A stretch of DNA of 64,000 nucleotides from an uncultured virus (IMG/VR IMGVR_UViG_3300033816_001043) (Duplodnaviria > Heunggongvirae > Uroviricota > Caudoviricetes). Every line of letters starts with the position of its first letter. Position 1 is the first letter of the stretch. The notes beneath the pieces were generated by a model. The model ran no database searches, was not told the origin of the DNA, and saw only the letters and a list, made by a program, of their open reading frames with translations. Position numbers and translations under genes: made by a program. Below are positions 2,976 to 15,803 of the stretch, piece by piece. The stretch lies in IMG/VR virus record IMGVR_UViG_3300033816_001043; one strand, given 5' to 3'.

Positions 2976-3014
2976 AGTGTTCTTTGTTTGTCCAACAAAT
3001 ATAAAAACAATTTT

Positions 3015-3329
3015 TTATTCGTACAACTTTTTTCGAACAAACTCTCCCAAATCTGCATCATTTGGATGACTCAAGATTTCTTCCCTATTCACACAATGTA
3101 AATCTTTAGAAGGTAAGTCAATTGCATCAATACCATAGAAATCGAGTAGTTCAATAACTTTCATAAGTTTGTGAGTTGTTTCATCAGTTTCACCCCACTC
3201 ACTTATGATATGGTATCTTTGTTCCCATCCTGAACGAAATATATAAACTACATATGGCTCAGATATTCCGTGGGGATATATTGTGGTTATATTTGGTTTC
3301 TTTTTAACTACAAGTTTGTCATTTTTCAT
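3015..3329 (-). CDS. hypothetical protein
   Basis: ORF. Confidence 0.6.
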   Translation of the reverse strand: MKNDKLVVKKKPNITTIYPHGISEPYVVYIFRSGWEQRYHIISEWGETDETTHKLMKVIELLDFYGIDAIDLPSKDLHCVNREEILSHPNDADLGEFVRKKLYE

Positions 3330-3534
3330 TGAAGAAGTGTTTTGATATTAGATATGAAAATATAAGAATTATAACCTCACAGGTCAACAAGAAACAAAAT
3401 GAAGTATCTGCATGTGAGTAATTCATAATTATACTTTTAACCTCCTCAAACTCGAAAATATTAAAAGTACCAAAATGATAAGCACCCAACATATAAAACA
3501 TTAGGTGTAAAACAAGTAAAACACGGATATTCAT
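3319..3534 (-). CDS. small membrane protein
   Basis: two hydrophobic stretches. Confidence 0.5.
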   Translation of the reverse strand: MNIRVLLVLHLMFYMLGAYHFGTFNIFEFEEVKSIIMNYSHADTSFCFLLTCEVIILIFSYLISKHFFNEK

Positions 3535-3560
3535 TTGAAAAAATTATTGTGGTAAATAAA

Positions 3561-3746
3561 TCAATCTCTGTTTCTCATATGGATTGGTAACATTCTATGT
3601 GTACTTCCCCTCTTTTTGAGATTTGGACTTTTCATTTTGTGTCTTAAGCTCGCTTGTGGATAAGAATGACAAGAGGGTCTTTGAAATACAACACAAGATG
3701 AAAGTGTAAAAAATAAAAATAATATTAATATCTTTTTCATTATCAT
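3561..3746 (-). CDS. small lipoprotein-like protein
   Basis: MKK-hydrophobic-LSSC lipobox-like N-terminus. Confidence 0.5.
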   Translation of the reverse strand: MIMKKILILFLFFTLSSCVVFQRPSCHSYPQASLRHKMKSPNLKKRGSTHRMLPIHMRNRD

Positions 3747-3835
3747 AAATATCCTAAATGTCAGTATCTAAAAATCCCAACATATAAAATATTAATAGTA
3801 CAATTAACATTACATAAAGCATAAGATAATTTTTG

Positions 3836-3912
3836 TACCCCCTGAGAGAATCGAACTCTCAATCAAAACATCATCCTAAATGATGCGCGTCTACCTATTC
3901 CGCCAAGGGGGT
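3836..3912 (-). tRNA. tRNA-Leu(TAG)
   Basis: cloverleaf; anticodon arm CATCA-TTTAGGA-TGATG. Confidence 0.85.
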
Positions 3913-3919
3913 ATTTTTG

Positions 3920-4004
3920 TAGTCGGGATGAGACTCGAACTCATAAGGTCTTACTGACCACAACGGTTTAAGTGTTGCGTGGATACCAATTTCACCACCC
4001 GACC
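3920..4004 (-). tRNA. tRNA-Leu(TAA)
   Basis: cloverleaf; loop CTTAAAC; long variable arm. Confidence 0.85.
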
Positions 4005-4395
4005 TACATTACAAACCAAATCCCAACTTAATGAGATATACCAAACCCAGTACAATTAAAGCTAACATCGTACCTGCAAACATCTGTAAAGAAAACTTAA
4101 CTTGTTCTTCACTTTTTCCTTGATTCTTGTTCTCCATCATAAAAATTTTTGATAATCCATAAAATGTTTATTTACCCACATTTTACCTGTTACTTGAGTT
4201 GGATGTTCTCGTTTACTTAGGTCGAAAATTTCAACCATCGTTTTTCTTTCATTATCTAACTCATCCCAAAGATAAGATATCGCCAAGTTTAATTTCCGTT
4301 TTTCCTCAGTACCAACCTCGGACTCTCTGACAAGTTTTTCTAACTTTGCTATAACATTTTGAATGGGGGTGTTTTTCATCACAACTTTAATTTTT

Positions 4396-4572
4396 TTAAT
4401 TGTTAATGTCAAGTTCCAACTGACTCTCACTAAATATGTGCAACATTCCATTGTCGATTAATTCAGCAACAATTCTTGTTTCACCTGATGTGGTTTGAAA
4501 TACCGCCACTACGATACCAGGGAACTTATACCCTTTTGGTTTGTAAACCTTGTCTCCTACTTTGAACTTCAT
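4396..4572 (-). CDS. SH3-fold protein resembling type II (R67/DfrB) dihydrofolate reductase (58 aa; not in ORF track)
   Basis: MKFKVGDKVYKPKGYKFPGIVVAVFQTTSGETRIVAELIDNGMLHIFSESQLEL. Confidence 0.5.
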   Translation of the reverse strand: MKFKVGDKVYKPKGYKFPGIVVAVFQTTSGETRIVAELIDNGMLHIFSESQLELDINN

Positions 4573-4578
4573 TTTTTT

Positions 4579-4983
4579 CTATTTTAAATAATTAACATGT
4601 ATTGAATGAAAACCCTCACTCCTATTTATTTTTAATTCCATCCTTGAACCAGTAACATAATCAACCCAAACATTTTCACCAACTTTCACATATGGCTCCA
4701 AATCTTTATAAGATTTGTTTAACATCTTGATTGGTCTGTAAACACTCCAATTTGCACAATATTCTACCCCATTACTTTCAACAAAAATGAACCCATAACT
4801 TTCCAATTGTTTCTCGTCCATATACACAATATCATAATAATAAGTAAAAATCTTTAATCCATCAATGAATTCGGTTTTGTGATTTGTACCTAGATTTTTT
4901 TCAATTTGTTGGGGAGATAAACCTAGTTGTGCAAATGTTAAAAATGGTAAAAATAATAATAGAAATAAAATCGTTTTTTTCAT
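4579..4983 (-). CDS. secreted hypothetical protein
   Basis: signal peptide ending FA-Q. Confidence 0.65.
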   Translation of the reverse strand: MKKTILFLLLFLPFLTFAQLGLSPQQIEKNLGTNHKTEFIDGLKIFTYYYDIVYMDEKQLESYGFIFVESNGVEYCANWSVYRPIKMLNKSYKDLEPYVKVGENVWVDYVTGSRMELKINRSEGFHSIHVNYLK

Positions 4984-4997
4984 AATTTTTGTTTTAG

Positions 4998-5071
4998 TAC
5001 ACCCATTTGGATTCGAACCAAAGACCTACTGCTTAGAAGGCAGTTGCTCTATCCAGCTGAGCTATGGGTGC
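4998..5071 (-). tRNA. tRNA-Arg(TCT)
   Basis: ACTGC-CTTCTAA-GCAGT; canonical D and T arms. Confidence 0.92.
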
Positions 5072-5077
5072 ATAATT

Positions 5078-5289
5078 TCCCCACCTTGAGATTACTGGTG
5101 AGTAGTTATTTCGGTTTTTTCCTATTCAAAAAACCTGTTGGGCATCCCCACTGAAAAAAGTCACACATACGAAGGAGGGGGTGTGCTGCCGCCTTTAACC
5201 CTAAGAATCGGCATTCCGTTGTCCGATTTGAACGAGTTCATTGTTAAATGAGTCTTGAACCAAAGACTGCTGAGTATCTCTTACTCATT
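5078..5289 (-). ncRNA. putative structured ncRNA between tRNAs
   Basis: GC-enriched, ORF-free, several hairpins (TGAGTA-AGAGA-TACTCA; GGTTTTTT-GAATAGG-AAAAAACC). Confidence 0.4.
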
Positions 5290-5290
5290 G

Positions 5291-5397
5291 TAGTCAGGAC
5301 AGGATTCGAACCTGTAAAATCTTTTATCTGGTTTAGGGTAGGTTCTATTCCTATCTCCTTCCAAAACATATAGCGTCTACCATTCCGCCACCTGGCT
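5291..5397 (-). ncRNA. tRNA-like RNA (acceptor, D and T arms; no canonical anticodon arm)
   Basis: AGCCAGGTGGCGGAATGGTAGACGC...ACAGGTTCGAATCCTGTCCTGACTA. Confidence 0.65.
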
Positions 5398-5402
5398 AAA
5401 TT

Positions 5403-5663
5403 TTAATTCAGTGCATCTATTTCCATACAATACAAACCGAACTCTTGTATTTCATCACCATATCTATACTTGTAAGTTCCCTCATATATGTCGGGATAAC
5501 TACTATCATAAGGAAAATAACCCAAGTATTCAACATCCTTATCTTCAAAGTAGGGTGGTAATCCCATATACTCATCCAAGAGTTGTTTGACCTTTTCAAC
5601 TGTCGTTGCAGTTAGTACTGGGATTTTATCTTCCCTATCTACTATAAGATATATTAGTGCCAT
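5403..5663 (-). CDS. hypothetical protein
   Basis: ORF. Confidence 0.6.
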   Translation of the reverse strand: MALIYLIVDREDKIPVLTATTVEKVKQLLDEYMGLPPYFEDKDVEYLGYFPYDSSYPDIYEGTYKYRYGDEIQEFGLYCMEIDALN

Positions 5664-6034
5664 TGTTGTAAACTTTTATTTATATTAATTTTTGTCAATT
5701 TTTTTTTTCTTTTTTTTTTATTTTTTTCTTTTCCTTTTTTTTCTTTTATTTTTTTTTCTTTTGTTTTTACGACTTCCACCAAATCCATTTCTGGGTCAGA
5801 TAATTCTTGATAACCAAACATTGAAAAGTCAGAAATATAAGACCACCACTTTCCATCAAAAACATATCTTTCATGGTCTATTTTTGGTTTTTTATTGTCA
5901 ATGCTTTTACCAAAATAAATTCCATCCCATCCATCTCTTTTCCCTTCTATTGGTGGATTACCCTTGATAATTTTTACTAATCTACCATCTCTACTCTTGT
6001 AAGTTTTACCTACTTCTAAAATTATATTTTCCAT
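5654..6034 (-). CDS. hypothetical protein with Lys-rich tail (start revised to MENIILEVGK)
   Basis: the upstream extension in the ORF track overlaps a tRNA-like element. Confidence 0.55.
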   Translation of the reverse strand: MENIILEVGKTYKSRDGRLVKIIKGNPPIEGKRDGWDGIYFGKSIDNKKPKIDHERYVFDGKWWSYISDFSMFGYQELSDPEMDLVEVVKTKEKKIKEKKGKEKNKKKRKKKLTKININKSLQQWH

Positions 6035-6066
6035 ATTTATAATTTTTATTTTTTTAAATAAGTTAG

Positions 6067-6147
6067 TAGTCAGGACAGGATTCGAACTTGTGACGATAAA
6101 CGCAGATGTGTACCTCATCTTGGCAGCTCCAATTCTGCCACCTGACT
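6067..6147 (-). ncRNA. tRNA-like RNA; atypical loop AGGTACA (GTA, no U33)
   Basis: shares acceptor and T arm with 5291-5397; AGATG/CATCT stem. Confidence 0.6.
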
Positions 6148-6247
6148 TTGTTTGTTTAAACTTTTCGGTTTTCCTATTCAAAACCTTAACGTCAGGCAAC
6201 AATCTAAGTGTCAGCCACTACTTGTGAATTATTAGGTGTCACAACCA

Positions 6248-6475
6248 TTAGAAATATTTTCTTGTCGCCCATTCATATGTATAAAACTCAGGAGCATTAC
6301 CATTAGGTAGAGATAAAAACATAAAACCATTGTAAGCATTAGATTTATGTAAGATATGTTCAATCATTGTAATAACCCCCATTTTTTCATCCAAAGATAT
6401 ATTGGTGTTACTGAGTACCAAGTTAGCATAATCTTTTATTTCTTGAACTTGGATTGTTTTTTTCTCTTTTGCCAT
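6248..6475 (-). CDS. hypothetical protein
   Basis: ORF with promoter at 6498. Confidence 0.65.
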   Translation of the reverse strand: MAKEKKTIQVQEIKDYANLVLSNTNISLDEKMGVITMIEHILHKSNAYNGFMFLSLPNGNAPEFYTYEWATRKYF

Positions 6476-6559
6476 TGTGTTTCCGTTTAAGTGTTCACAA
6501 ATATAGAAATAGATTTTTAATTACACAACCTTTGATGAATATTTTTGGGAAAATATTTG

Positions 6560-6630
6560 AGCGGATAGTTGGTACCGCCCCAACTTATCTAGTTTGGAAG
6601 ACTAGAACATTACTTTTATGCTATACCCGC
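6560..6630 (-). tRNA. tRNA-Gly(TCC), non-canonical T loop
   Basis: CTAGT-CTTCCAA-ACTAG; T arm GTTGG-GGCGGTA-CCAAC. Confidence 0.8.
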
Positions 6631-6634
6631 TAAT

Positions 6635-6865
6635 TTACCTTAGATTCCAAATACCACCAGCAAAACACTTGAAGTCATTGTAACTTGTAACTCTTATAGG
6701 GTTTTCTTCATATTTCCACCTATTACAAGTTATATAGATTTCTCCTGTCCATTTATCCTTTTTGAGAAAGGTATAAATACCATTACGAGATTTGATATGG
6801 ATTTTATCCCCATTTTTGAGGTTCTTAAACTGAGACAATCTTATTTGTTCCATAAGTGATTCCAT
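6635..6865 (-). CDS. hypothetical protein
   Basis: ORF between tRNAs. Confidence 0.55.
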   Translation of the reverse strand: MESLMEQIRLSQFKNLKNGDKIHIKSRNGIYTFLKKDKWTGEIYITCNRWKYEENPIRVTSYNDFKCFAGGIWNLR

Positions 6866-6882
6866 AGTATTTGAATAAAAAG

Positions 6883-6957
6883 TGGAGCCGGTATGAGGAA
6901 TCGAACCCCATTATCTTGATTACAAGTCAAGTACATCACCACTTATGCTTTACCGGC
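6883..6957 (-). tRNA. tRNA-Thr(TGT), encoded CCA
   Basis: CTTGA-CTTGTAA-TCAAG. Confidence 0.9.
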
Positions 6958-6967
6958 ATTTATAATT

Positions 6968-7060
6968 GGGTGGTAGGGACTTCCACCCATAGACTTAAGG
7001 TTTTTTAGTTATTTTACAATAACCTGCCCGTGTGTCCTTCACCTTAAAACGGGAGTCCCT
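6968..7060 (-). ncRNA. putative pseudoknotted small RNA
   Basis: AGGGACT/AGTCCCT outer stem; CCCGT/ACGGG stem whose loop TTAAGGT pairs with downstream ACCTTAA. Confidence 0.45.
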
Positions 7061-7062
7061 TA

Positions 7063-7138
7063 TGGAGCGATAGACAAGATTCGAACTTGCGACTTTAATC
7101 TTGGCAAGATTATGCTCTACCTACTGAGCTACTATCGC
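7063..7138 (-). tRNA. tRNA-Gly(GCC), encoded CCA
   Basis: TAATC-TTGCCAA-GATTA. Confidence 0.9.
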
Positions 7139-7404
7139 TTTTTATAAACATAAGTTATTGTATCACCAATCTTATAAACATCATTTCTCTTGGTTATAAC
7201 AAACTCATCACAATCTGTTGAATAATGATATCTTTTCCCATATTCAATGGTGGATGGTGATTCTGTAACATAAAATGTGTCTATAACACATCTTTTAACA
7301 ATATCCCCATCTTCAATTTCATTATAGTTTGTTCTATTTAGAATTGAAGCTAATAAAACAAATGAAACAAAAAATAAAAACAAACAAGGAATTAAATATT
7401 TCAT
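7132..7404 (-). CDS. membrane-anchored hypothetical protein
   Basis: N-terminal hydrophobic segment. Confidence 0.55.
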   Translation of the reverse strand: MKYLIPCLFLFFVSFVLLASILNRTNYNEIEDGDIVKRCVIDTFYVTESPSTIEYGKRYHYSTDCDEFVITKRNDVYKIGDTITYVYKKR

Positions 7405-7406
7405 CT

Positions 7407-7655
7407 TTAAACTTTTAACAAATAAATTAATAATGAACCCAAAGTATAACCAATACTGGATGCCAAGGCCATCTTGATTCTTTCATTCCAATTCTTTGAT
7501 TCAACCATATAACCAACAAATGGTAATCCCAAAAATGGCCCGATACAAGCCCAAAAAATCATCATAAAATCTCTATCAGCAACCGTTGCAATATACATAG
7601 TTGCGGCCAACTCAATAACAAATGATGCGATACCAATTATAATATATTTTTTCAT
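7407..7655 (-). CDS. small membrane protein
   Basis: three hydrophobic segments. Confidence 0.6.
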   Translation of the reverse strand: MKKYIIIGIASFVIELAATMYIATVADRDFMMIFWACIGPFLGLPFVGYMVESKNWNERIKMALASSIGYTLGSLLIYLLKV

Positions 7656-8248
7656 AAATGTTTAATTACCCAATCCGCAAACTTCTTTTGTCCTGATAAA
7701 CTTACATGAACCCCATCACCAGCATCTTTGAATGTTACAGATGTATCCTTTGGAATTATAAGACAATTTTTCAAACCTGTCTTTGGGTCAACCATCAATT
7801 TTTGAAATTCAACATACCTTGCTCTACATCTATCAGTGGTCTCAGTACCATATACAGTTCTAACCATAACTTTGATGGGGTCATATCCAACAATAACAAT
7901 CGGTTTAATCCCCCTCCTATTACAAGAATCAACCATCATCTGTATATTATTAACGGCACCCTGTAAGTTCACATAAGAAAAAGCATCATTACAACCCCCA
8001 TAAATAAACACACTGGTAAACATTGAATCTCTCTTCAAATGGTCGTTAAGTGTTAATCTCATCCAATCCGTTCTCTTTCCACCACTTGATTTATTTAAAC
8101 TCTGATAACCGAATTCCTTGGCTACCATATCTTGCCAACCACCAGTATAACAAGTTAAACTATCACCGATGAATAATACCCTCAAAGGTGGGGTTGAAAA
8201 GGAAGTTAATAAAATAACACATAACAATAATAAACTAATTTTCTTCAT
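7652..8248 (-). CDS. SGNH/GDSL hydrolase, secreted
   Basis: FIGDSLT block I, GGCND, DGVH block V. Confidence 0.85.
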   Translation of the reverse strand: MKKISLLLLCVILLTSFSTPPLRVLFIGDSLTCYTGGWQDMVAKEFGYQSLNKSSGGKRTDWMRLTLNDHLKRDSMFTSVFIYGGCNDAFSYVNLQGAVNNIQMMVDSCNRRGIKPIVIVGYDPIKVMVRTVYGTETTDRCRARYVEFQKLMVDPKTGLKNCLIIPKDTSVTFKDAGDGVHVSLSGQKKFADWVIKHL

Positions 8249-8261
8249 AAAACAATTTTTT

Positions 8262-8339
8262 TGGTGGAGACAGTGAGAATCAAACTCACCTCACAGATAT
8301 TGCAAATATCCATCGCCAAGTCTTGGTACATGTGCCCCC
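8262..8339 (-). tRNA. tRNA-Ala(TGC), encoded CCA
   Basis: GGATA-TTTGCAA-TATCT; G3:U70 pair. Confidence 0.8.
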
Positions 8340-8347
8340 ATTTTTAT

Positions 8348-8869
8348 TTATAACCCAATTTCCTCCAAAGGTAAAACCTCAAAGAAATATTTACAACCAA
8401 CATCTGTTATATATTCAAAAACATCCTTATAACAATCTTTATTGAAAAAATTACTTAAGACATAATAGTACTCAACTTGGATACCGATTGGACTAAACAA
8501 TTTTTTATATTGTCTTTTTTTGAAATTACAAGTTTGTAATTTCTCATCAACAGAACCGGCACCATTTTGGTATTTCTTTTCAATTATGTAGATGGTATTC
8601 CCCACTAATATTGCAGCATCAGGTAAAAGTTTTTTACTGATAATCGTATTGTGGTCAATATTATATCTACTTAACAATTTTTTGTACAGACCATATTTCT
8701 CAAAATATTCACCGACAATTATACCATTTTTTACAATTTGGTCTTGATTATCCATCACATAATCACTTTGTTCCACTAACAATTTTTTTAGGTGTGTTGT
8801 AGCTTCAAAATGTAATCCGTTAACATTTGTGTTTGCACCCCCACCACTTTTGTTTGGCGTTCTATTCAT
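8348..8869 (-). CDS. PD-(D/E)xK restriction-endonuclease-like nuclease
   Basis: LLPDAA...IIEKKYQ...GSVDEKLQT. Confidence 0.65.
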   Translation of the reverse strand: MNRTPNKSGGGANTNVNGLHFEATTHLKKLLVEQSDYVMDNQDQIVKNGIIVGEYFEKYGLYKKLLSRYNIDHNTIISKKLLPDAAILVGNTIYIIEKKYQNGAGSVDEKLQTCNFKKRQYKKLFSPIGIQVEYYYVLSNFFNKDCYKDVFEYITDVGCKYFFEVLPLEEIGL

Positions 8870-8885
8870 AGTTTTTCTTTTTTTG

Positions 8886-8970
8886 TGGTGGGAATGGAGG
8901 GATTCGAACCCCCTCAGCTAATGCAAATGATTTACAGTCATCCCCGACTCTCCAGCTTCGGCGCACTCCC
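8886..8970 (-). tRNA. tRNA-Tyr(GTA), encoded CCA
   Basis: loop CTGTAAA; long variable arm. Confidence 0.9.
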
Positions 8971-8981
8971 ATTATAAATTG

Positions 8982-9056
8982 ATGCAGGAACGGGAGTCGA
9001 ACCCGTATGGTACGGCTTATGAGACCGAGCTGGAACCACTTCCAGTCCATCCTGCA
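8982..9056 (-). tRNA. tRNA-Met(CAT)
   Basis: loop CTCATAA; T arm ACGGG-TTCGACT-CCCGT. Confidence 0.85.
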
Positions 9057-9065
9057 TTGTGTTTG

Positions 9066-9137
9066 ACGCAAAGAAAGGAATCGAACCTTTTACCTTTGGG
9101 TTATGAGCCCAATGTGCAACCACTACACTTCTTTGCA
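9066..9137 (-). tRNA. tRNA-Met(CAT), initiator-like
   Basis: GGG/CCC pairs in the anticodon stem; weak 1:72 pair. Confidence 0.85.
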
Positions 9138-9145
9138 TATATTTG

Positions 9146-9217
9146 TAGCCCGTAGGGTAGTCGAAACCCTATTGCCAGAATGAAAATCTGGAGTACTAAC
9201 CATTATACGAACGGGCC
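9146..9217 (-). tRNA. tRNA-Glu(TTC)
   Basis: CCAGA-TTTTCAT-TCTGG. Confidence 0.85.
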
Positions 9218-9225
9218 ATATTTGT

Positions 9226-9302
9226 TGGCGAGCTATAGGGGATTCGAACCCCTGGTCTTCAGCGTGACAAGCTGAAATGTTAAACCCCTACACCAATAGC
9301 TC
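9226..9302 (-). tRNA. tRNA-Asp(GTC), encoded CCA
   Basis: TCAGC-TTGTCAC-GCTGA. Confidence 0.9.
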
Positions 9303-9324
9303 TTTTGTATTAATTCTTCCCTCT

Positions 9325-9336
9325 ATGTCAATGAAC
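9325..9336 (-). promoter_or_regulatory. boxA-like antitermination element GTTCATTGACAT
   Basis: identical 12-mer at 15244-15255; both lie just before the first tRNA of an array. Confidence 0.6.
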
Positions 9337-9355
9337 TTTACAAAGTTAAACAATC

Positions 9356-9835
9356 TTATCCAATTTTCCAAGCACCATAGATAACTTTTTTTCTCTGTAG
9401 TGCATCTTCTGTGTTTCCAATTACAACTCCATCTTTGATTGTGAAAGCATGACCCTTGATTGTAACAATGTAAGTTCCTTTTGAATACTTTTCCAAGAAC
9501 TTAGCTGTTGTCATATTTCTCAAAACATTTCTTCCTTTCACCTCAACCCAATATGCCATTTGAATATCTTCTCTAATTGGTGTAACACCTTTACGATTGA
9601 ACTTTATCTGTTTTGACGCAAGTGCATTCATAGTTAAACCAAAGAGTGCAGTCCCTTGTCTATTTTTTCTACCAAAAACCTCTGCCACTTTTTTGTGAGC
9701 GTAGTCGTAAGTAACTCCAAACGCTGAAGCAAAGGCTCTGACGACACAATCGTCTTTCTCACTTTGAGCTAACTTCGATTCTGCAATCCCTTTGATGGCG
9801 ACTGATGATGATATGTATGGTGTTTTCGTTTTCAT
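9356..9835 (-). CDS. hypothetical phage protein
   Basis: 159 aa; DDCVVRA and GHAF motifs; own promoter at 9840. Confidence 0.7.
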   Translation of the reverse strand: MKTKTPYISSSVAIKGIAESKLAQSEKDDCVVRAFASAFGVTYDYAHKKVAEVFGRKNRQGTALFGLTMNALASKQIKFNRKGVTPIREDIQMAYWVEVKGRNVLRNMTTAKFLEKYSKGTYIVTIKGHAFTIKDGVVIGNTEDALQRKKVIYGAWKIG

Positions 9836-9879
9836 ATTACAAAGTTACAAAACCATTTTTAATTTCCAAACTTTGTGAT

Positions 9880-9915
9880 AAAAAAAAATCCATCTTTTTT
9901 TACGAAGATGGATTT
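9880..9915 (-). terminator. intrinsic terminator/attenuator after leader peptide 1
   Basis: AAATCCATCTT-loop-AAGATGGATTT followed by a T-run. Confidence 0.8.
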
Positions 9916-9942
9916 GACATTATTAACACTCAAAACTTAAGT

Positions 9943-10014
9943 TCATACCATCTCCATCCGAGGATTTCTACCCTCAGCTCCAGTCGTTAAGTCCATATAG
10001 AGATTGCGTTTCAT
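9943..10014 (-). CDS. putative attenuator leader peptide 1 (MKRNLYMDLTTGAEGRNPRMEMV)
   Basis: 23-codon ORF between a TTGACA-N17-TATATT promoter and a terminator; composition matches the downstream tRNA array. Confidence 0.65.
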   Translation of the reverse strand: MKRNLYMDLTTGAEGRNPRMEMV

Positions 10015-10073
10015 TGAATTTCTTACTATTTTTTTATTAAATATAATGATATAACGGAAAAGTGTCAAGTATG

Positions 10074-10385
10074 TTACAAAAAAGATGAAATAATTTGTGC
10101 TACTTTATATCCTGTGAAGGCTCCCAATGCCGCAGAACCTGGTAAAACAAAGAACTTACCGAATAAACTTTCATATTTTGCCCTATTAACGATGTATGAA
10201 ATTAGGATATAATAAAGAAAGAAGTTAATCAGTACAGCAATATCGATTTCCTTGGCCATAAAGACAACAATCGAGTTTCCAAAGAACCCCCAACTGAAGT
10301 TTATTAATGTCTCCCTGATTAATTCCCAAACTGATGTATTGGCATCAGCAACCTTAATTTCCCTTGTAAATAAATTATTTTTCAT
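10074..10385 (-). CDS. membrane protein
   Basis: hydrophobic segments. Confidence 0.65.
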   Translation of the reverse strand: MKNNLFTREIKVADANTSVWELIRETLINFSWGFFGNSIVVFMAKEIDIAVLINFFLYYILISYIVNRAKYESLFGKFFVLPGSAALGAFTGYKVAQIISSFL

Positions 10386-10891
10386 CCTATAAAATCGTCA
10401 AATCCGTTGTTACTTAAAAAATCGTTATCTTCATCTATTTCTCTTATCTCGAACTCAAAACTTGATACATTACAAACTACATCTTTAGTGAATGTTTCGT
10501 GTATATAATCAAAGTCATCTGGAGATATTTGAACTTGTTCATCTTTAAATAATTTGAAAAGTTCCTTTGTATTTCTGTAAAGATTTGGGTATTGATAAGT
10601 TTTCAAAATACCATCCATTTCGAATACTTCAAATCTTTTGTAAAAATTATCGTTGTACATTAGAATATGTTCCTGAGCCCACTCATTAACAACTTGAAGA
10701 ATGAATGTCTTTAAACCCTGCATACAAGCTACTCTATAGTCCTCATATTGTTGTTCAACAGTTAAACTACCAATCTCAACATCATCAACCTCTTCTTCAT
10801 ATTTGGCAATTGTATCCAAGGCCAACATCTGTAATTCATCCCAATTTGTTTGATGTATTTTATAAAAGTTTACAACTACCATTTCTTTCAT
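10382..10891 (-). CDS. hypothetical acidic protein
   Basis: ORF with ATGA overlap. Confidence 0.65.
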   Translation of the reverse strand: MKEMVVVNFYKIHQTNWDELQMLALDTIAKYEEEVDDVEIGSLTVEQQYEDYRVACMQGLKTFILQVVNEWAQEHILMYNDNFYKRFEVFEMDGILKTYQYPNLYRNTKELFKLFKDEQVQISPDDFDYIHETFTKDVVCNVSSFEFEIREIDEDNDFLSNNGFDDFIG

Positions 10892-10911
10892 TATTAAAGT
10901 GTTATTTAATT

Positions 10912-11553
10912 TTATTCCTTCGAATCTGTATCGTAAAACATTAAGTCAGAGTCTTCGGTTGCCCATTTATTATGTCCTTCACAATTATAATAATCTAAAT
11001 TAACTAGATAATCAGGTTTCTCAGGAAAATCTTTTGTGACAAAAGAAGGTTCATTCCATCTTATTCTATTGTTGGGTTGTAAGGCAATTTGTCCATTATC
11101 TAATAAGATGATGTGATGACACTTGTGTTCCATAGGGTCTTCTGACAATGTTAAATCAGTATTCATATCACTTGAACCCCAGTTAATTGTGCCAAAATAA
11201 TTTCCATCATACCATTTCTTATCTTTCATAAAAACTGAAACCCGCATCCCATATACAAAACTAAGTTGAATGAGGGAAAAGTTATATGAAAAACAATTCC
11301 ATAATTGCAGAAAATGAAAAGACAAATCAGGATTTGGTGTCTCAGGTTTTGTCAATAGTGCATGAGATGGTAATTTGTCTCTCATTACACCATTGTTCAA
11401 TAAAACCTGAAACAAAACCGCCTGGTTTGGCATACACCGAATCGAAGTAACAATTCCTTCTGTAAACTCACCAAATCCTTTTTGGTGCTGATACATATAT
11501 TCATTTCGAACATAAACTTTAAGTGGGAAAAAATTACTTTCGATATAAGCCAT
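10912..11553 (-). CDS. hypothetical phage protein
   Basis: 213-aa ORF. Confidence 0.75.
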   Translation of the reverse strand: MAYIESNFFPLKVYVRNEYMYQHQKGFGEFTEGIVTSIRCMPNQAVLFQVLLNNGVMRDKLPSHALLTKPETPNPDLSFHFLQLWNCFSYNFSLIQLSFVYGMRVSVFMKDKKWYDGNYFGTINWGSSDMNTDLTLSEDPMEHKCHHIILLDNGQIALQPNNRIRWNEPSFVTKDFPEKPDYLVNLDYYNCEGHNKWATEDSDLMFYDTDSKE

Positions 11554-11555
11554 AA

Positions 11556-11876
11556 TTAACTTGTTGGTATGTCATTTGAGCCATACTCTCTTATTAAATA
11601 GTCGGTAAAATTTTCTACACTTTCAACATTGAACTCAACTTCTTCGTGCCAGATTTTTTTATCAACATCATCATATAACCACCAGCCAACTAAGTCCTGA
11701 ATCCATCCGAATTGTTCGTCTTGTTTTTTTCTGAGGAGGGTCGGAATACTTTTTTCAAGTTGCGGAGTGGTGTTGTTAAACTCAAGTAAATCAACTCCCA
11801 AATCATAGAGCCTATGTATCTTTTCATCGTATTCTTTTATTTTTAACAAAGTTTCGATTATGTATTCTCGTACCAT
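11556..11876 (-). CDS. hypothetical protein
   Basis: ORF. Confidence 0.6.
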   Translation of the reverse strand: MVREYIIETLLKIKEYDEKIHRLYDLGVDLLEFNNTTPQLEKSIPTLLRKKQDEQFGWIQDLVGWWLYDDVDKKIWHEEVEFNVESVENFTDYLIREYGSNDIPTS

Positions 11877-11884
11877 TATAAGTA

Positions 11885-12073
11885 TTATTTAAGTTGTTTG
11901 AAATATTTTGGAATTATTATCATACTACTGATGTAAAATGAAATAAACATCACACCATAAACTAATCCCTCGTTGAAATAGATACCCAAAACATATTTGC
12001 TAATCAATAGCTGGGGTATCATAATCAAAAAGAAAACTAAAAAAGAAAAGAACACAGTTACAAATGTTTTCAT
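11885..12073 (-). CDS. small membrane protein
   Basis: two hydrophobic segments. Confidence 0.5.
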   Translation of the reverse strand: MKTFVTVFFSFLVFFLIMIPQLLISKYVLGIYFNEGLVYGVMFISFYISSMIIIPKYFKQLK

Positions 12074-12102
12074 CTCATTTTATTTTGTGGTTAAATAATT
12101 TG

Positions 12103-12175
12103 CAGGTCCCCAAGGATTCGAACCCTGACCGGATAGGTTGGAGCTATCAATGCTAAGCCATTACACTAGAGACCC
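12103..12175 (-). tRNA. tRNA-Trp(CCA)
   Basis: GATAG-CTCCAAC-CTATC. Confidence 0.88.
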
Positions 12176-12210
12176 ATATATTTGCTTACTATTACAAAGA
12201 TAAGAAAAAA

Positions 12211-12945
12211 TTAAAACTTTTTATATTTTTTATCCCAATTTTCAATCCTTTTTAAAAGTTCTTCCATTGTTATTGATGAATTATCCTTTTTTATTGAATT
12301 ATCTGAGAATAATAATAGATTACAATTCGCAGGATGGGATATAATCTTTGGGTTAATCTTATTTCGAAAACCATCCATCACAGAATACATATGGTCTTTA
12401 CTTACCCCTTTCAAATTATTCCGTTTGTTTGTTGGTGAATACCATCCATATTGTTCAACTAAAGATAAATCAAATTCATCTTTAAAATCTTGGATGTCAA
12501 ACTTAAAAAAACAAGATGGTCTATAATACTCGTAATATGTTAATTTACAATCATTACATATTATTTTCAACTTTTCAGTTACCTCATTAATTGAACAAAT
12601 CTTACAAATCTTTTTAGTTTTAATCTTTTCCTTTCTGGGCTTGTTTTTTAAGGTCTCTGAAATCTTTTTTTTAGTTTCTTCAGTCAGTTTTCTATTTCTA
12701 TTATTATACTGTATAGCACAAGAAGATGAACAAAAGGTATTAGGTTTACTAAAATATTTTTCAAATTCCTTTTTACAATTTTTACAAACTTGATTTTCCT
12801 TGTATATAACTTTTAAATTCAATCTACCCATTTTACAATTGATAGATTTGTAAGTCGTTCCCATAATTTCAGCAATATCACCAGGTCTATAACCCTTCTC
12901 GACAAGTGAAACTAATTGTTTTATATTTTCATCATTCCATTTCAT
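12211..12945 (-). CDS. putative homing-endonuclease-like protein (HTH, Zn ribbons, NUMOD-like segment, HNH-like C-terminus)
   Basis: CxxC motifs, EETKKKISE, KDHMYS...HPANC; inserted in a tRNA array. Confidence 0.55.
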   Translation of the reverse strand: MKWNDENIKQLVSLVEKGYRPGDIAEIMGTTYKSINCKMGRLNLKVIYKENQVCKNCKKEFEKYFSKPNTFCSSSCAIQYNNRNRKLTEETKKKISETLKNKPRKEKIKTKKICKICSINEVTEKLKIICNDCKLTYYEYYRPSCFFKFDIQDFKDEFDLSLVEQYGWYSPTNKRNNLKGVSKDHMYSVMDGFRNKINPKIISHPANCNLLLFSDNSIKKDNSSITMEELLKRIENWDKKYKKF

Positions 12946-12997
12946 ATATATAAATATCTAAGAAATGAGGAAAAGTAAAGAATCGAACTTTTTTTTG

Positions 12998-13071
12998 AGG
13001 TCGGGGAGGGAATCGAACCCCCCTAAAAATGATTTTGCAGGTCATTGCCTAAACCACTCGGCCACCCGACC
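12998..13071 (-). tRNA. tRNA-Cys(GCA)
   Basis: loop CTGCAAA; U73. Confidence 0.88.
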
Positions 13072-13225
13072 TTAATATTTCTTTTTTATCCCCCAACTTC
13101 ACCCCACTCGTCAGTGGGGGAGTGGTTAGGTTGAGTCCGAACTTATACCTTGGGCTATTCGTTGGACGAAAAAGACCACAGCAAGTGAGCAGTTCTTATG
13201 GGATGCTTCGTGGTACATTTATCAG

Positions 13226-13300
13226 TACCTCCTATTGGAGTCGAACCAATGACCTTCACCTTGTAAGGATGTTGCTCTAAACCAACTGAGCTAAGGAAGT
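13226..13300 (-). tRNA. tRNA-Val(TAC)
   Basis: loop CTTACAA. Confidence 0.88.
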
Positions 13301-13307
13301 ATCGTTG

Positions 13308-13382
13308 TGACCCTGGTGGGACTCGAACCCACGCTCCCAATATTAAAAGTATTGTGCTTTAAACCAACTAAGCCACAGGGTC
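13308..13382 (-). tRNA. tRNA-Lys(TTT)
   Basis: CAATA-CTTTTAA-TATTG. Confidence 0.9.
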
Positions 13383-13383
13383 G

Positions 13384-13689
13384 TTAATCAAATCTTCTGT
13401 TAGGATTCATTCCTCTCTTATAGTTCACACACAATCTATCTTTATCATCAAAGAAAGTATTGACCATTGGTGTGCCCAATTTTATACCACAACCATCAGG
13501 TGCGAAACTACATAAACTTCTTGCACGACCATCCAAGTTTACATCTTCCAATAATCTCCACTCAATTCCTGTCTCCACATCATAAACATAATCACCATCT
13601 CTCAATACATAAAGTTGGTTGTATCTGTTTCTCATTGATTCATAAAACTTCGCTGACATAGTGTTCATTAAAATTAAAACTTTCAACAT
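13384..13689 (-). CDS. hypothetical protein (start uncertain)
   Basis: ORF between tRNAs. Confidence 0.55.
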   Translation of the reverse strand: MLKVLILMNTMSAKFYESMRNRYNQLYVLRDGDYVYDVETGIEWRLLEDVNLDGRARSLCSFAPDGCGIKLGTPMVNTFFDDKDRLCVNYKRGMNPNRRFD

Positions 13690-13712
13690 AATTCGGTTGA
13701 TTGAATGGTTAA

Positions 13713-13925
13713 CTAATCCTGTCTAATTACATTCCCAAATCTACACAAAAGATTCATATATTTTACTGTTTCCATCAAATAATTTTGATTTTTATCCATT
13801 AAAATAACAACCTCCATATCAATAATTGCTCTTACCTGAACCTCCTTGTTGTTGGGATTGTCATCACCAAAATCAATAATTAAGTTGTCACCAACTTTAA
13901 ACTCACCAATTTTTACCTTTTCCAT
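13713..13925 (-). CDS. hypothetical protein
   Basis: ORF. Confidence 0.55.
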   Translation of the reverse strand: MEKVKIGEFKVGDNLIIDFGDDNPNNKEVQVRAIIDMEVVILMDKNQNYLMETVKYMNLLCRFGNVIRQD

Positions 13926-13940
13926 AATAAATATTTTTTG

Positions 13941-14015
13941 TTGTTCCGGTGGGGCTCGAACCCACGACTTCTACGGTATCAGCATAGTACTCTAAACCAA
14001 CTGAGTTACGGAACA
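13941..14015 (-). tRNA. tRNA-Ile(GAT)
   Basis: CTATG-CTGATAC-CGTAG. Confidence 0.88.
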
Positions 14016-14022
14016 ATGTTTG

Positions 14023-14096
14023 TGGTTTCATCAGGACTCGAACCTGAAACCCCTCCGTTATGAGCGGAAAGCTCTAACCACTTGAGCTATAAAACC
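14023..14096 (-). tRNA. tRNA(CAT), probably Ile2 (lysidine) or elongator Met
   Basis: loop CTCATAA; adjacent to Ile(GAT). Confidence 0.85.
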
Positions 14097-14110
14097 TTAA
14101 AAAAAATTTG

Positions 14111-14182
14111 TATGGGTGACCGGATTTGAACCGATGACCACTAATTCCCAAAATTAGCATTCTACCTCTGAACTACACCCAT
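14111..14182 (-). tRNA. tRNA-Pro(TGG)
   Basis: CTAAT-TTTGGGA-ATTAG. Confidence 0.85.
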
Positions 14183-14352
14183 ATATTAAACAATTAAACC
14201 ATATATAATTCCACATAGAAGAACAATTAGAAAAATAAGTCCTACTAAGAATAGGTCTGAGTTTCGTTTGAAGTGAGACAAAACTAAGAATAATATTCCA
14301 ATTATCAAAAACAAAAGACCAATTAATAATAACATAATTTAATTTTTTTTTG

Positions 14353-14446
14353 CGGAGAACAGAGGTCTCGAACCCACACACCAGCTCATCACCGATGACA
14401 TCTGATTTTCAAGACCAGGCCGATACCAATTTCGGTTGACTTTTCC
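14353..14446 (-). tRNA. tRNA-Ser(TGA)
   Basis: loop CTTGAAA; long variable arm; G73. Confidence 0.8.
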
Positions 14447-14454
14447 GTATTGTT

Positions 14455-14531
14455 TGGTGGTATGATGGGACTCGAACCCACACATACATCATCCACAATG
14501 ATGTCCCTCTACCAATTGGGGTACATACCAC
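14455..14531 (-). tRNA. tRNA-His(GTG)
   Basis: CATCA-TTGTGGA-TGATG. Confidence 0.85.
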
Positions 14532-14539
14532 ATATAGTT

Positions 14540-14615
14540 TGGTGGTGATGATTGGAATCGAACCAATATTAAACGATTTTCAGTCGTTCGCCTTGACCAA
14601 CTTGGCAACATCACC
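14540..14615 (-). tRNA. tRNA-Phe(GAA), encoded CCA
   Basis: AACGA-CTGAAAA-TCGTT. Confidence 0.9.
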
Positions 14616-14924
14616 ATAAAGTTTTGAGTAAGTATCCACCACGTTTAAGGCTGGCTGTGGACAGTGCTACCTACGACCTTTCCTTACTCTTCTACAAAGT
14701 TACCATTTTTTTTTAATTTCCAAATATCTTTGTAAGTTTTTTTTAAAGTGGTCAAAATCCACCACTTTAAGTTATTACTACACAATCCATAAAATGGTAA
14801 AAACCAATTAATGTAAAACTTGAACAATAAATTATTTTAAAAAAAATTTTGAATTTTACTTGGATGTATGGTATTTGTTTTGTTTCTTTGTTAAACATTA
14901 TTTCACTACTAAAAATTTAAAATT

Positions 14925-15047
14925 ATGAACACACAATTGAGCACAACTTCAAAAATTATTGTTGGAATTATTTCTGTTGTATTATTATACAACGCTACTT
15001 ACCTACTAGGAATTGTTGTAGGTTTTTTACAAGGTATTTTGGGTTAA
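14925..15047 (+). CDS. 40-aa hydrophobic peptide (not in ORF track)
   Basis: MNTQLSTTSKIIVGIISVVLLYNATYLLGIVVGFLQGILG; A-rich leader; followed by a hairpin at 15060-15104. Confidence 0.5.
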   Translation: MNTQLSTTSKIIVGIISVVLLYNATYLLGIVVGFLQGILG

Positions 15048-15154
15048 AATTATTCTTTTAAAAGTAGAATTCGGATTTTATTTAAAAGTTCGAATTCTAC
15101 TTTTATTATCTCTATTTCATTATACCAGGTAATAAAATCCCTCACTTTAGAATG

Positions 15155-15227
15155 TTCCCCCTGATGGAATCGAACCACCATCCTCAGAATCAAAATCTGA
15201 TGTAATCAACCATTATACCAAGAGGGA
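15155..15227 (-). tRNA. tRNA-Gln(TTG)
   Basis: TCAGA-TTTTGAT-TCTGA. Confidence 0.88.
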
Positions 15228-15243
15228 GTATTATTTTACCACG

Positions 15244-15255
15244 ATGTCAATGAAC
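15244..15255 (-). promoter_or_regulatory. boxA-like element GTTCATTGACAT
   Basis: directly after the attenuator T-run; same 12-mer as 9325-9336. Confidence 0.6.
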
Positions 15256-15287
15256 AAAAAAAACCCTGAACTTTATGGTTCAGGGTT
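15256..15287 (-). terminator. intrinsic terminator/attenuator after leader peptide 2
   Basis: AACCCTGAAC-CATAAA-GTTCAGGGTT followed by a T-run. Confidence 0.8.
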
Positions 15288-15311
15288 CTACTATCAAAAA
15301 ATTATTAACAA

Positions 15312-15419
15312 TTATAATTCTATAGAATTTCCCCAACCATTACAAACACTAGGTTTTGACCAACAATTACTAAATTGTGGCTGAACCGATATGTTAATAT
15401 GTTTGAAGAAATTTTTCAT
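15312..15419 (-). CDS. putative attenuator leader peptide 2 (MKNFFKHINISVQPQFSNCWSKPSVCNGWGNSIEL)
   Basis: 35-codon ORF ending about 25 nt before the terminator; composition matches the downstream tRNA array. Confidence 0.7.
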   Translation of the reverse strand: MKNFFKHINISVQPQFSNCWSKPSVCNGWGNSIEL

Positions 15420-15463
15420 TTTTTTAGTTTGTTTATAAGTATTGCGAAATTAATAAAAAGTTT

Positions 15464-15529
15464 GGCTCAGAATGATTTTTTTCCAAAGTTGCAATTTTGT
15501 TTAGTTTGCTGAACTCATTCTTTATAACC
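15464..15529 (-). ncRNA. TROVE-associated small RNA, copy A
   Basis: AGAATGA-GTTCAGCAA...TCATTCT-G stem. Confidence 0.6.
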
Positions 15530-15535
15530 TAAATT

Positions 15536-15603
15536 GACAGGATAGTGTTTGGTCAAATTTACAAGTTTTGATGTTTAAAGATTGCTGAATCTATCCCTCG
15601 TTC
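15536..15603 (-). ncRNA. TROVE-associated small RNA, copy B
   Basis: GGATAG-ATTCAGCAA...CTATCC-TG stem. Confidence 0.6.
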
Positions 15604-15650
15604 TATATAACGTAAATATAATTAAAAAGTTTCAAAAAGAAAAGAAAATT

Positions 15651-15796
15651 GGAAAAATTGGTTTCAGTATGGGTTTTTTGTTGAAGTTTATTTCCGTGCG
15701 ATTGGAAAAATGAGTCAACAACTCAGCCTTGTGTTCGAATGATTCAATATTTGTATCTTAGTTTGCTGGAATCATACTTTATAAACCAATTTTTCC
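15651..15796 (-). ncRNA. TROVE-associated small RNA, copy C
   Basis: 14-bp outer stem; AGTATG-ATTCCAGCAA...CATACT-G. Confidence 0.6.
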
Positions 15797-15803
15797 TTTT
15801 CTC

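Follow-up and report, generated by a model that had tools for sequence, protein, structure and literature searches.

The window analysed here, a 64,000-nucleotide stretch of phage DNA (31% G+C), carries two tRNA arrays, both on the minus strand. Array 1 is headed by a module of about 160 nt that has a layout typical of leader-peptide attenuators: a small ORF, flanked by a promoter-like site and an intrinsic terminator, lies ahead of the array. The features of the module (9877..10082) and of the region down to the array are as follows.

10073..10082, minus strand: conserved upstream block TTTTTGTAAC, overlapping the stop codon of a 103-aa ORF in the window
10040..10068, minus strand: sigma-70-like promoter TTGACA-N17-TATATT (TTGACA 10068-10063, TATATT 10045-10040)
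9943..10014, minus strand: leader 1 ORF (ATG at 10014, 23 sense codons MKRNLYMDLTTGAEGRNPRMEMV, TGA 9945-9943)
9994..10008, minus strand: region 1, the 5' strand of helix 1:2 (predicted anti-antiterminator)
9967..10002, minus strand: putative sensor core, codons 5-16 (LYMDLTTGAEGR), with nine of the nine array-1 amino acids
9958..9977, minus strand: hairpin P3 within the leader 1 ORF, codons 13-19
9946..9960, minus strand: region 2, the final ORF codons, predicted antiterminator strand complementary to the terminator 5' arm
9877..9915, minus strand: intrinsic terminator (5' arm 9915-9905, loop 9904-9897, 3' arm 9896-9886, T-run)
9840..9870, minus strand: TTTG-N19-TAACTTTG promoter-like site of the 159-aa gene (TAACTTTG box 9847-9840)
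9356..9835, minus strand: 159-aa gene (phrog_3754), between leader 1 and array 1, lineage-specific
9341..9348, minus strand: TAACTTTG box just before tRNA-Asp, the promoter-like site of array 1 itself
3835..9302, minus strand: tRNA array 1, interspersed with protein genes

Promoter, ORF (10014-9943) and terminator each lie where an earlier note on this DNA had placed them. The terminator hairpin (9915-9886) has 11 pairs and an 8-nt loop and is followed by nine T to 9880; a 27-nt spacer separates it from the leader 1 stop codon, and an A-rich stretch of about 25 nt lies between TATATT and the ATG. In a consensus scan the promoter scores 11/12 and ranks top in 3000-17000, but sites scoring at least 11/12 number 7 in the 64-kb window against 7.2 ± 2.4 in shuffles, so that the match alone is at chance level. 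The promoter is supported because both hexamers are invariant, with a spacer of 16-17 nt, in every homologue. The upstream block TTTTTGTAAC is invariant in the 10 aligned homologues and in a diverged clade described below, and is retained in the L030 lineage although a different upstream gene there stops 25 nt earlier. A profile search finds the promoter block once in the window, and it is therefore not a repeated promoter. An Rfam scan of 3000-16500 with E values up to 1 returns nothing within 9877-10070, be it trp, his, leu or thr leaders, T-boxes or small RNAs, and DNA searches of 9300-10900 against GenBank phages, near and distant, give no match.

Array 1 runs Asp, Glu, Met, Met, Tyr, Gly-GCC, Thr, Gly-TCC, Tyr, a tRNA-like gene, Arg-TCT, Leu-TAA and Leu-TAG. 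Eleven of these tRNAs are called by ARAGORN (Asp, Glu, Met x2, Tyr x2, Gly(GCC), Thr, Arg(TCT) and Leu x2), while Gly(TCC) at 6560-6630 is detected only by Rfam (46 bits) and by ARAGORN at a relaxed threshold. The list of array-1 tRNAs given in the earlier note thus stands for Asp, Glu, Met x2, Tyr, Gly(GCC), Thr, Arg and Leu x2, and at the relaxed threshold for Gly(TCC). Its tRNA-Ala is unconfirmed in the window: the Ala tRNAs of relatives give no alignment with the tRNA-like Rfam match at 5291-5397 (34 bits). Five of the six relatives carry Ala(TGC) in array 1. Seven genomes split their tRNAs alike between the two arrays. Array 1 across these genomes comprises Asp, Leu, Glu, Met, Tyr, Gly, Ala, Thr, Arg-TCT and again Leu, and array 2 comprises Gln, Phe, His, Asn, Arg-ACG, Ser-GCT, Pro, an Ile2-like CAT tRNA, Ile, Lys, Val, Cys and Trp.

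The region between the leader 1 terminator and the first tRNA is not empty. As the earlier note had cautioned, it holds TAACTTTG sites at 9847-9840 and 9348-9341 together with an inserted gene at 9835-9356, which encodes the 159-aa protein. This gene is present in seven of ten relatives tested and missing from L030, L101 and L163; eight of eleven lineages carry the insertion. In the three lineages that lack it, leader 1 lies directly before the array, and the array's promoter-like box and tRNA-Asp follow the terminator within 71-144 nt. Sites homologous to the box at 9341..9348 precede tRNA-Asp in L030 and L163. Leader-peptide attenuators are expected to have no promoter just before the genes that they regulate, and array 1 departs from this pattern: TTTG-N19/20-TAnnTTTG precedes tRNA-Asp in the window, in L030 and in L163.

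Conservation of the leader 1 module

Homologues were sought from three seeds, namely the PurM-like neighbour (80 loci), an exact 20-mer and the promoter block, and then with nhmmer and a covariance model. The covariance-model search places the module in 8 of 75 sources. All seven relatives that have it carry tRNA arrays, as does the window, and the module always stands at the head of array 1; among the loci that lack the element and have a full 4-kb downstream flank, none of 23 holds any tRNA. The same covariance model finds no homologue in four more distant phage records. A metagenome scan with the promoter block yielded 98 stretches, of which 80 were examined; ten contain the full-length element, with minor variants only.

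The module forms a local peak of conservation: in comparison with L012 and L021, its nucleotide identity is 87-95%, and that of the flanking genes 52-85%. When the module is compared with that of L040 in three bins, identity is 93, 79 and 92%, the value of 79% belonging to the interior bin. The module accompanies the array and not its upstream neighbour, which is a different gene in L030.

The comparison of leader 1 spans only two deeply diverged clades, a main clade and a diverged clade that consists of L141, L143 and L146 (represented by L163) together with the minor variants L179 and L195. The diverged clade retains the promoter hexamers, the start codon, exactly 23 codons and the stop position, and 10 of the 23 leader 1 residues are identical between the two clades. 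All 11 matches, which encode seven distinct peptides, share the start and stop position of the ORF and have an open frame between them; nucleotide shuffles of the leader ORF stay open in 13-21% of cases. Within the main clade, variable ORF sites fall 5/4/6 on codon positions 1/2/3 (a hand count on the alignment), and most changes alter the residue, most of them non-conservatively. Because this variation is not three-periodic and mostly changes residues, the peptide itself is not conserved in the manner of a functional protein. One contig from an RNA library (public runs, contigs) bridges the element with 126 other letters replacing 128, which fits the existence of a diverged clade but has no bearing on whether the element is transcribed.

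Match between the leader 1 ORF and array 1

The amino-acid content of the leader 1 ORF matches the tRNA content of array 1. In six of the seven distinct leader 1 peptides, a run of 12-13 residues drawn only from array-1 amino acids covers eight or nine of the nine, and in the window the run of 12 (codons 5-16) holds all nine. Random 23-mers drawn from the phage's own amino-acid make-up reach a run of 12 with nine distinct amino acids with P = 4e-5, and a run of 12 alone with P = 1.4e-3. The run is the longest among the 314 small ATG-ORFs of the window, where the next longest is 9; in the real proteins (n = 89; 17,218 residues) the longest array-1 run is also 12. Recounts bear out what the earlier note had said of this peptide, namely that 18 of its 23 residues come from nine named amino acids, that none of them is F, H, I, S, Q, C or W, and that its core is entirely in-set (a run of 12, nine of nine). 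Of the Gly codons that the note names, GGA is matched by Gly(TCC), a tRNA called by ARAGORN at the relaxed threshold only. The diverged clade has changed 8 of the 12 core residues, all of them to members of the array-1 set. Stop-free nucleotide shuffles of the ORF reach 18 of 23 in-set residues in 1% of cases for the window and in 0.2% for L163.

The match extends to codons. When the tRNAs that ARAGORN calls in each genome are applied with ordinary wobble rules, array-1 tRNAs read 73 of the 84 core codons in seven genomes. Another 11 have no called phage tRNA to read them, and none depends on array 2 only; a single ATG among the 73 is counted for array 2 as well, an artefact of the wobble rules. 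In the window, ARAGORN-called array-1 tRNAs read 10 of the 12 core codons and array 2 alone reads none, and the GCT codon has no confirmed tRNA-Ala. Outside the core, codons 2-4, 17-18 and 23 are mostly array-2 codons. The earlier note had pointed to CGC and CGG codons that Arg(TCT) would not read; both are present, but they lie outside the core, whose own Arg codon is the cognate AGA. Leader 1 uses single, mixed codons and not repeated regulatory codons.

The exception is L040, where the run is 6 instead of 12. In L165, the genome to which L040 belongs, array 1 and not array 2 contains the Ile2-like CAT tRNA, whose homologues lie in array 2 in the other genomes. Two ATA codons (T11I and V23I) occur in leader 1 of L165 and none in its leader 2. 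The broken run of L040 is thus explained at the codon level, because the Ile2-like tRNA has been relocated to array 1.

Predicted RNA structures of leader 1

Folding models of the window give three mutually exclusive duplexes: helix 1:2, which joins codons 3-7 with codons 20-23 (-10.3 kcal/mol), helix 2:3, which joins the last ORF codons with the terminator 5' arm (-11.9 kcal/mol), and the terminator hairpin (-11.4 kcal/mol). Helix 2:3 is thus predicted to be roughly as stable as the terminator, and its 8 pairs in the window agree with the complementarity of the final ORF codons to the terminator 5' arm that had been claimed from the letters. In L163 the corresponding energies are -11.3 kcal/mol for helix 2:3 and -12.2 kcal/mol for the terminator, and helix 1:2 reaches only -4.7 kcal/mol. 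In these models, the energy of helix 2:3, the predicted antiterminator pairing, is conserved in both clades.

In transcripts truncated ahead of the 3' arm, pairing of the 5' arm with the last five codons and the stop codon is predicted at P = 0.88 in the window and 0.67 in L163; one of 150 shuffled leaders matches this pairing in each clade. A ribosome placed on the last codons reduces the pairing. Since the 5' arm is already paired without a ribosome, the scan of stall positions used a partner-specific pairing measure. In the full-length RNA at equilibrium, the terminator forms with P 0.97-0.99 without a ribosome; it stays at 0.7 or above at most stall positions in the window, and in L163 there is no dip at any position. 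The folding proposed in the earlier note, with and without the segment covered by a ribosome, has a divided outcome: the cut transcript forms the pairing with the ORF end, whereas in the full-length RNA the terminator dominates regardless. Because the terminator dominates at equilibrium, any switch must be kinetic, and known attenuators do switch kinetically.

Covariation is found in five pairs that change on both sides (two in the closing helix P1 and one each in helix 1:2, P3 and the terminator), a number that none of 500 shuffles reaches; the count was made on a model-fitted alignment and comes mostly from one diverged sequence. Both changes in P1 are compensatory. The compensatory pair of helix 1:2 changes from CG to UA in L040, and that of the terminator from UA to CG in the diverged clade. 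In P3 all cells are paired in 10 distinct sequences, with one double change from GC to AU as well as changes from GU to GC and from GU to AU. In region 2, AUGGA becomes AUGGG where UCCAU in the terminator arm becomes CCCAU. The earlier note had suggested looking for antiterminator/terminator covariation among related leaders, and it is present in this form: one UA to CG change in the terminator and a paired change of region 2 and arm, drawn mostly from one diverged sequence.

Leader 2 and leaders of more distant phages

A second leader ORF lies ahead of array 2 in the window.

15419-15312, minus strand: leader 2 ORF, 35 codons (terminator 15289-15260; tRNA-Gln 32 nt further on)

Leader 2 shows the mirror pattern of leader 1. 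In six of seven genomes it contains runs of 18-27 array-2 amino acids that cover 11-13 different ones; in the seventh, L168, the run is 9. The run of 27 in the window is the longest among the 314 small ORFs, with the next at 19, and none of 300,000 random 35-mers has a run of 21 with 12 distinct amino acids. The claim that the two leaders divide the genetic code in the same way as the two arrays is upheld for both leaders by the composition test, and for leader 1 by the codon test as well. The end of the leader 2 ORF pairs with the terminator arm in four of the seven genomes (at most 2 of 100 shuffles reach this pairing); no such pairing was found in L164, L167 and L168.

A more distant phage, G002, has 38 tRNAs in three blocks, each preceded at 7-13 nt by a strong terminator, and ahead of each block's terminator lies a small ORF of unrelated sequence.

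G002 block A leader: run 21, 11 of 11 amino acids, P = 0 in 200,000 simulations
G002 block C leader: run 17, 6 of 6 amino acids, P = 0 in 200,000 simulations
G002 block B leader: run 6, 4 of 5 amino acids, P = 7e-4

The block B leader of G002 also contains a 7-residue run of block-C amino acids. Two further phages have 21-codon leaders: that of G005 holds nine of nine array amino acids and has 16 of 21 residues in-set (P = 0.009), and that of G004 holds eight of eight with 15 of 21 in-set (P = 0.014). No promoter intervenes in the case of leader 2 and the three G002 leaders, whose terminators lie only 7-32 nt from the first tRNA. These terminators leave scant room for a promoter, and read-through is therefore the sole evident source of the tRNAs that follow them.

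A proposed model for leader-controlled tRNA blocks

We have very little doubt that the leader 1 ORF is functionally tied to array 1. Sequence comparison and folding models together establish the parts of the module, their conservation, the match in composition between ORF and array and the feasibility of the alternative pairings. On the same grounds we consider it likely that leader 1 is a ribosome-mediated (leader-peptide) transcription attenuator heading tRNA array 1 of a large phage. We further infer that the ORF is translated, that its translation is coupled to termination, and that the response runs in one direction: slow decoding of the leader codons probably raises the output of the array-1 tRNA block.

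In the attenuator that we propose, transcription would begin at the conserved TTGACA-N17-TATATT site, and a ribosome would translate the 23-codon ORF, whose core codons 5-16 specify array-1 amino acids only. With fast decoding, the ribosome would get to the last codons and the stop codon and cover region 2, so that the terminator could form and transcription would end at about 9880. With slow decoding, when a tRNA of the set is scarce or damaged, the ribosome would lag in the core and leave region 2 uncovered; free region 2 would then capture the terminator 5' arm once it is made, and the polymerase would continue toward the tRNA genes. In the main clade, helix 1:2 may hold region 2 when no ribosome is loaded, in the style of the trp leader. 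Since a promoter-like site and, in 8 of 11 lineages, the 159-aa gene lie past the terminator, read-through from leader 1 may add little to the transcription of array 1.

A related reading, which we think unlikely, accepts that the ORF truly senses the decoding of array-1 codons and seeks the output elsewhere than in read-through into the tRNA genes: in control of the 159-aa gene, in cleavage or stability of the leader RNA that depends on stalling, or in a stable terminated RNA (P1, P2, P3 and terminator) that acts in trans. The match in composition would be just as strong as for an attenuator, tRNA-Asp has a separate promoter-like site ahead of it, the terminated RNA is closed by helix P1 with its two compensatory pairs, and the terminator wins at equilibrium. 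Yet three lineages have leader 1 without any 159-aa gene, the terminators of leader 2 and of the G002 leaders stand 7-32 nt from the first tRNA, and the pairing between ORF end and terminator arm is conserved. A search for trans targets with the conserved single-stranded 14-mer, allowing up to 3 mismatches, gave 7 matches where 12.2 are expected and no sign of targets. A pure small-RNA reading was dropped because the diverged clade retained the ORF and its composition. The idea of a Y RNA, prompted by the DUF2828/DUF7788 protein at 15804-17201 (labelled 'RNA-binding protein' in PHROG), was dropped as well, no supporting feature having been found.

It is more doubtful still that the module, equipped with its own promoter and terminator, is a separate small gene or small RNA that happens to lie beside the array, its likeness in composition being a coincidence or a by-product of RNA structure. 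The self-contained architecture would suit such a gene, as would the very high nucleotide conservation with main-clade substitutions that are not three-periodic (5, 4, 6), the mostly non-conservative amino-acid changes and the RNA helices inside the ORF. But a coincidence would have to recur in the second clade despite the change of 8 of 12 core residues, again in leader 2, and at least four more times in unrelated leaders of other phages; nucleotide shuffles that keep the composition seldom reach the match, and no Rfam family matches the element. Least credible, and in our view very improbable, is a chance ORF within the 3' untranslated region and terminator of the upstream operon, with a promoter match that is likewise due to chance. 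Seven promoter sites of equal quality are indeed expected by chance in the window, and the upstream 103-aa gene has no other terminator; but the block moves with the array and not with the upstream gene, which is a different one in L030, the ORF keeps its length across a deep divergence, when only 13-21% of shuffles retain an open frame, and the composition statistics also speak against chance.

Taking the leaders together, we tentatively put forward a broader model, which we hold to be plausible if a little short of probable. Large phages would partition their tRNA genes into blocks, each gated by its own leader, which lists the amino acids of the block, and largely its codons, as a gauge of decoding capacity read by the ribosome. 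Depletion or cleavage of particular host tRNAs, for example through host shut-off or anticodon nucleases, would be sensed in this way, and only the replacement set would be transcribed; leaders and blocks would co-evolve when a tRNA is relocated.

Relation to known leaders

Leader-peptide attenuation is textbook control of amino-acid synthesis genes, and trpL, hisL, leuL, thrL, ilvL and pheL are multivalent leader-peptide attenuators of enterobacterial amino-acid operons. Leader 1 resembles these attenuators in having a short ORF between a promoter and an intrinsic terminator, with codons related to the genes thought to be regulated, in its predicted mutually exclusive helices 1:2, 2:3 and 3:4 of similar stability, and in a stop codon that adjoins region 2. 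It differs from them in several respects. Its array consists of tRNA genes where theirs encode biosynthetic enzymes; it spreads its codons over about nine amino acids, with one or two codons apiece, where they have a run of one or a few; its stop codon comes after region 2 and theirs before; a promoter-like site lies between its terminator and the first regulated gene; and it has no sequence or Rfam match to them. Because a promoter-like site intervenes, we do not file leader 1 as a plain member of the leader-peptide attenuators. Of these, pheL is named in PMC3082878.

Two known systems connect the translation apparatus to its own supply. The pheST attenuator, with its pheM leader, controls a synthetase and senses one amino acid, and T-boxes, which are much longer than about 160 nt, bind uncharged tRNA directly, without a ribosome. 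Like pheM and the T-box, leader 1 would tie genes of the translation apparatus to the supply of usable tRNA; unlike T-boxes, the leader 1 element measures about 160 nt and has no T-box match in Rfam. T-box riboswitches are named in PMC9177973. Short sensor ORFs are also described for the Salmonella mgtCBR leader (PMC3641672) and for the mycobacterial polycysteine leaderless ORFs (bioRxiv 10.1101/834739). In these systems, as proposed for leader 1, the RNA structure that governs expression further downstream is taken to be determined by the translation of a tiny ORF; unlike leader 1, they respond to a single amino acid, and the operons under their control encode proteins and belong to cellular genomes.

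In a full-text search of the literature outside subscription journals, we found no account of leader-peptide control of tRNA genes. Two features appear to be new: that the genes regulated are tRNA genes, and that the leader is built to list a whole set of amino acids. The same attenuation logic appears to govern tRNA genes, with one leader sampling a whole codon set. If this is true, it would provide a mechanism by which phages regulate their often large tRNA sets and a reason why tRNA genes are sorted into blocks. It would also mean that a virus can sense the state of the host translation apparatus, including defences that target tRNA. Moreover, a computable rule, that leader composition equals block content, would find such regulators and predict the codons that they monitor.

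Promoter boxes and the host

Promoter-like sites of the kind that precedes array 1 are enriched in the window, where TTTG-N17-21-TAnnTTTG occurs 14 times against 5.7 ± 2.3 in shuffles. TAnnTTTG boxes stand directly before tRNA-Asp (9348-9341), tRNA-Trp (12202-12195), tRNA-Phe (14702-14695) and the 159-aa gene (9847-9840). We take the TTTG and TAnnTTTG boxes of the window to be the Bacteroidota-type promoter consensus, and our guess, which rests on consensus features, is that the host is of Bacteroidota type. The TTGACA-type promoter of leader 1 is of another kind than these boxes, which weighs against the attenuator model. Of 89 genes, 6 have a Shine-Dalgarno-like 4-mer upstream, compared with 15% at control positions, and positions -10 to -13 upstream of genes are 60-69% A.

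Putative leader peptides and their tRNA arrays

Leader 2, the short open reading frame heading the second of the two minus-strand tRNA arrays, is followed by its own terminator:

15260-15419, minus strand: leader 2 (35-codon ORF) with its terminator
15289-15260, minus strand: leader-2 terminator, 3' of the ORF

Residues 1-27 of the peptide consist only of array-2 amino acids, 12 of which are represented, and include two Cys and one Trp; a second Trp is residue 29. The core motif around QPQF.NCW is kept in 7 genomes, with variation at third codon positions. tRNA-Gln lies 32 nt beyond the terminator, leaving scant space for another promoter between them.

The ATA codons of the two leaders also go with a tRNA whose array differs between lineages. 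We set an Ile2-like CAT tRNA of the L165 genome (L165:15507-15581) against its counterpart in the window (14022-14096), and find that it lies in array 1 in the lineage of L165 and in array 2 in all the others compared; the ATA codons of the leaders track its array position.

A more distant phage, G002 (L268), carries three small ORFs, listed here in reverse-complement coordinates:

5067-5226: small ORF
8417-8569: small ORF
10983-11126: small ORF

These ORFs are unrelated in sequence. Each is composed of amino acids of its own tRNA block, and each is followed by a strong terminator lying 7-13 nt ahead of that block. All three share an upstream promoter-like block, TTGAAACTTTT...TATA-type.

Between leader 1, the 23-codon ORF heading array 1, and that array lies a further gene:

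9356-9870, minus strand: 159-aa gene (phrog_3754) and the TTTGGAAATT...TAACTTTG box belonging to it

This gene, which is missing from 3 lineages, looks like an insertion separating leader 1 from its array. A box similar to that of the gene occurs at 14724-14695.

Further features of the arrays and their surroundings

Ahead of the first tRNA in each array (9310-9335 and 15232-15252, minus strand) stands a common motif, GTTCATTGACAT.G.GG.AA, which is also found in L030 and L163, two relatives' loci carrying the leader-1 module; in the tRNA precursor this motif might serve as a signal for processing or as a leader signal. Three other minus-strand genes deserve mention:

5291-5397, minus strand: tRNA-like gene (Rfam 34 bits; ~107 nt)
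15804-17201, minus strand: 465-aa protein gene (DUF2828 and DUF7788 domains; PHROG label 'RNA-binding protein')
10912-11553, minus strand: PurM-like gene, 213 aa

The tRNA-like gene receives no assignment from ARAGORN, and its 5' end resembles a long-arm (class II) tRNA; it does not correspond to the Ala tRNA of relatives. The DUF2828/DUF7788 protein gene is located immediately upstream of leader 2, and its product has homologues in other large tRNA-rich phages (44-59% identity). In the conserved region 5' of leader 2 (15480-15650, minus strand), GGATAG...CTATCC forms an inverted repeat and GTTCAGCAA-like motifs recur, similar to the leader-2 terminator's 3' arm; this region may represent an additional layer of regulatory RNA. 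Public annotations of the PurM-like gene conflict: PHROGs name it 'ferredoxin', whereas GenBank cyanophage records give PurM or phosphoribosylaminoimidazole synthetase.

Across the whole window, Shine-Dalgarno use is nearly nil and positions -10 to -13 are A-rich. TAnnTTTG boxes lie 23-32 nt upstream of 10 of the 89 starts, and two such boxes stand just 4 nt 5' of the ATG, suggesting mRNAs with little or no leader.
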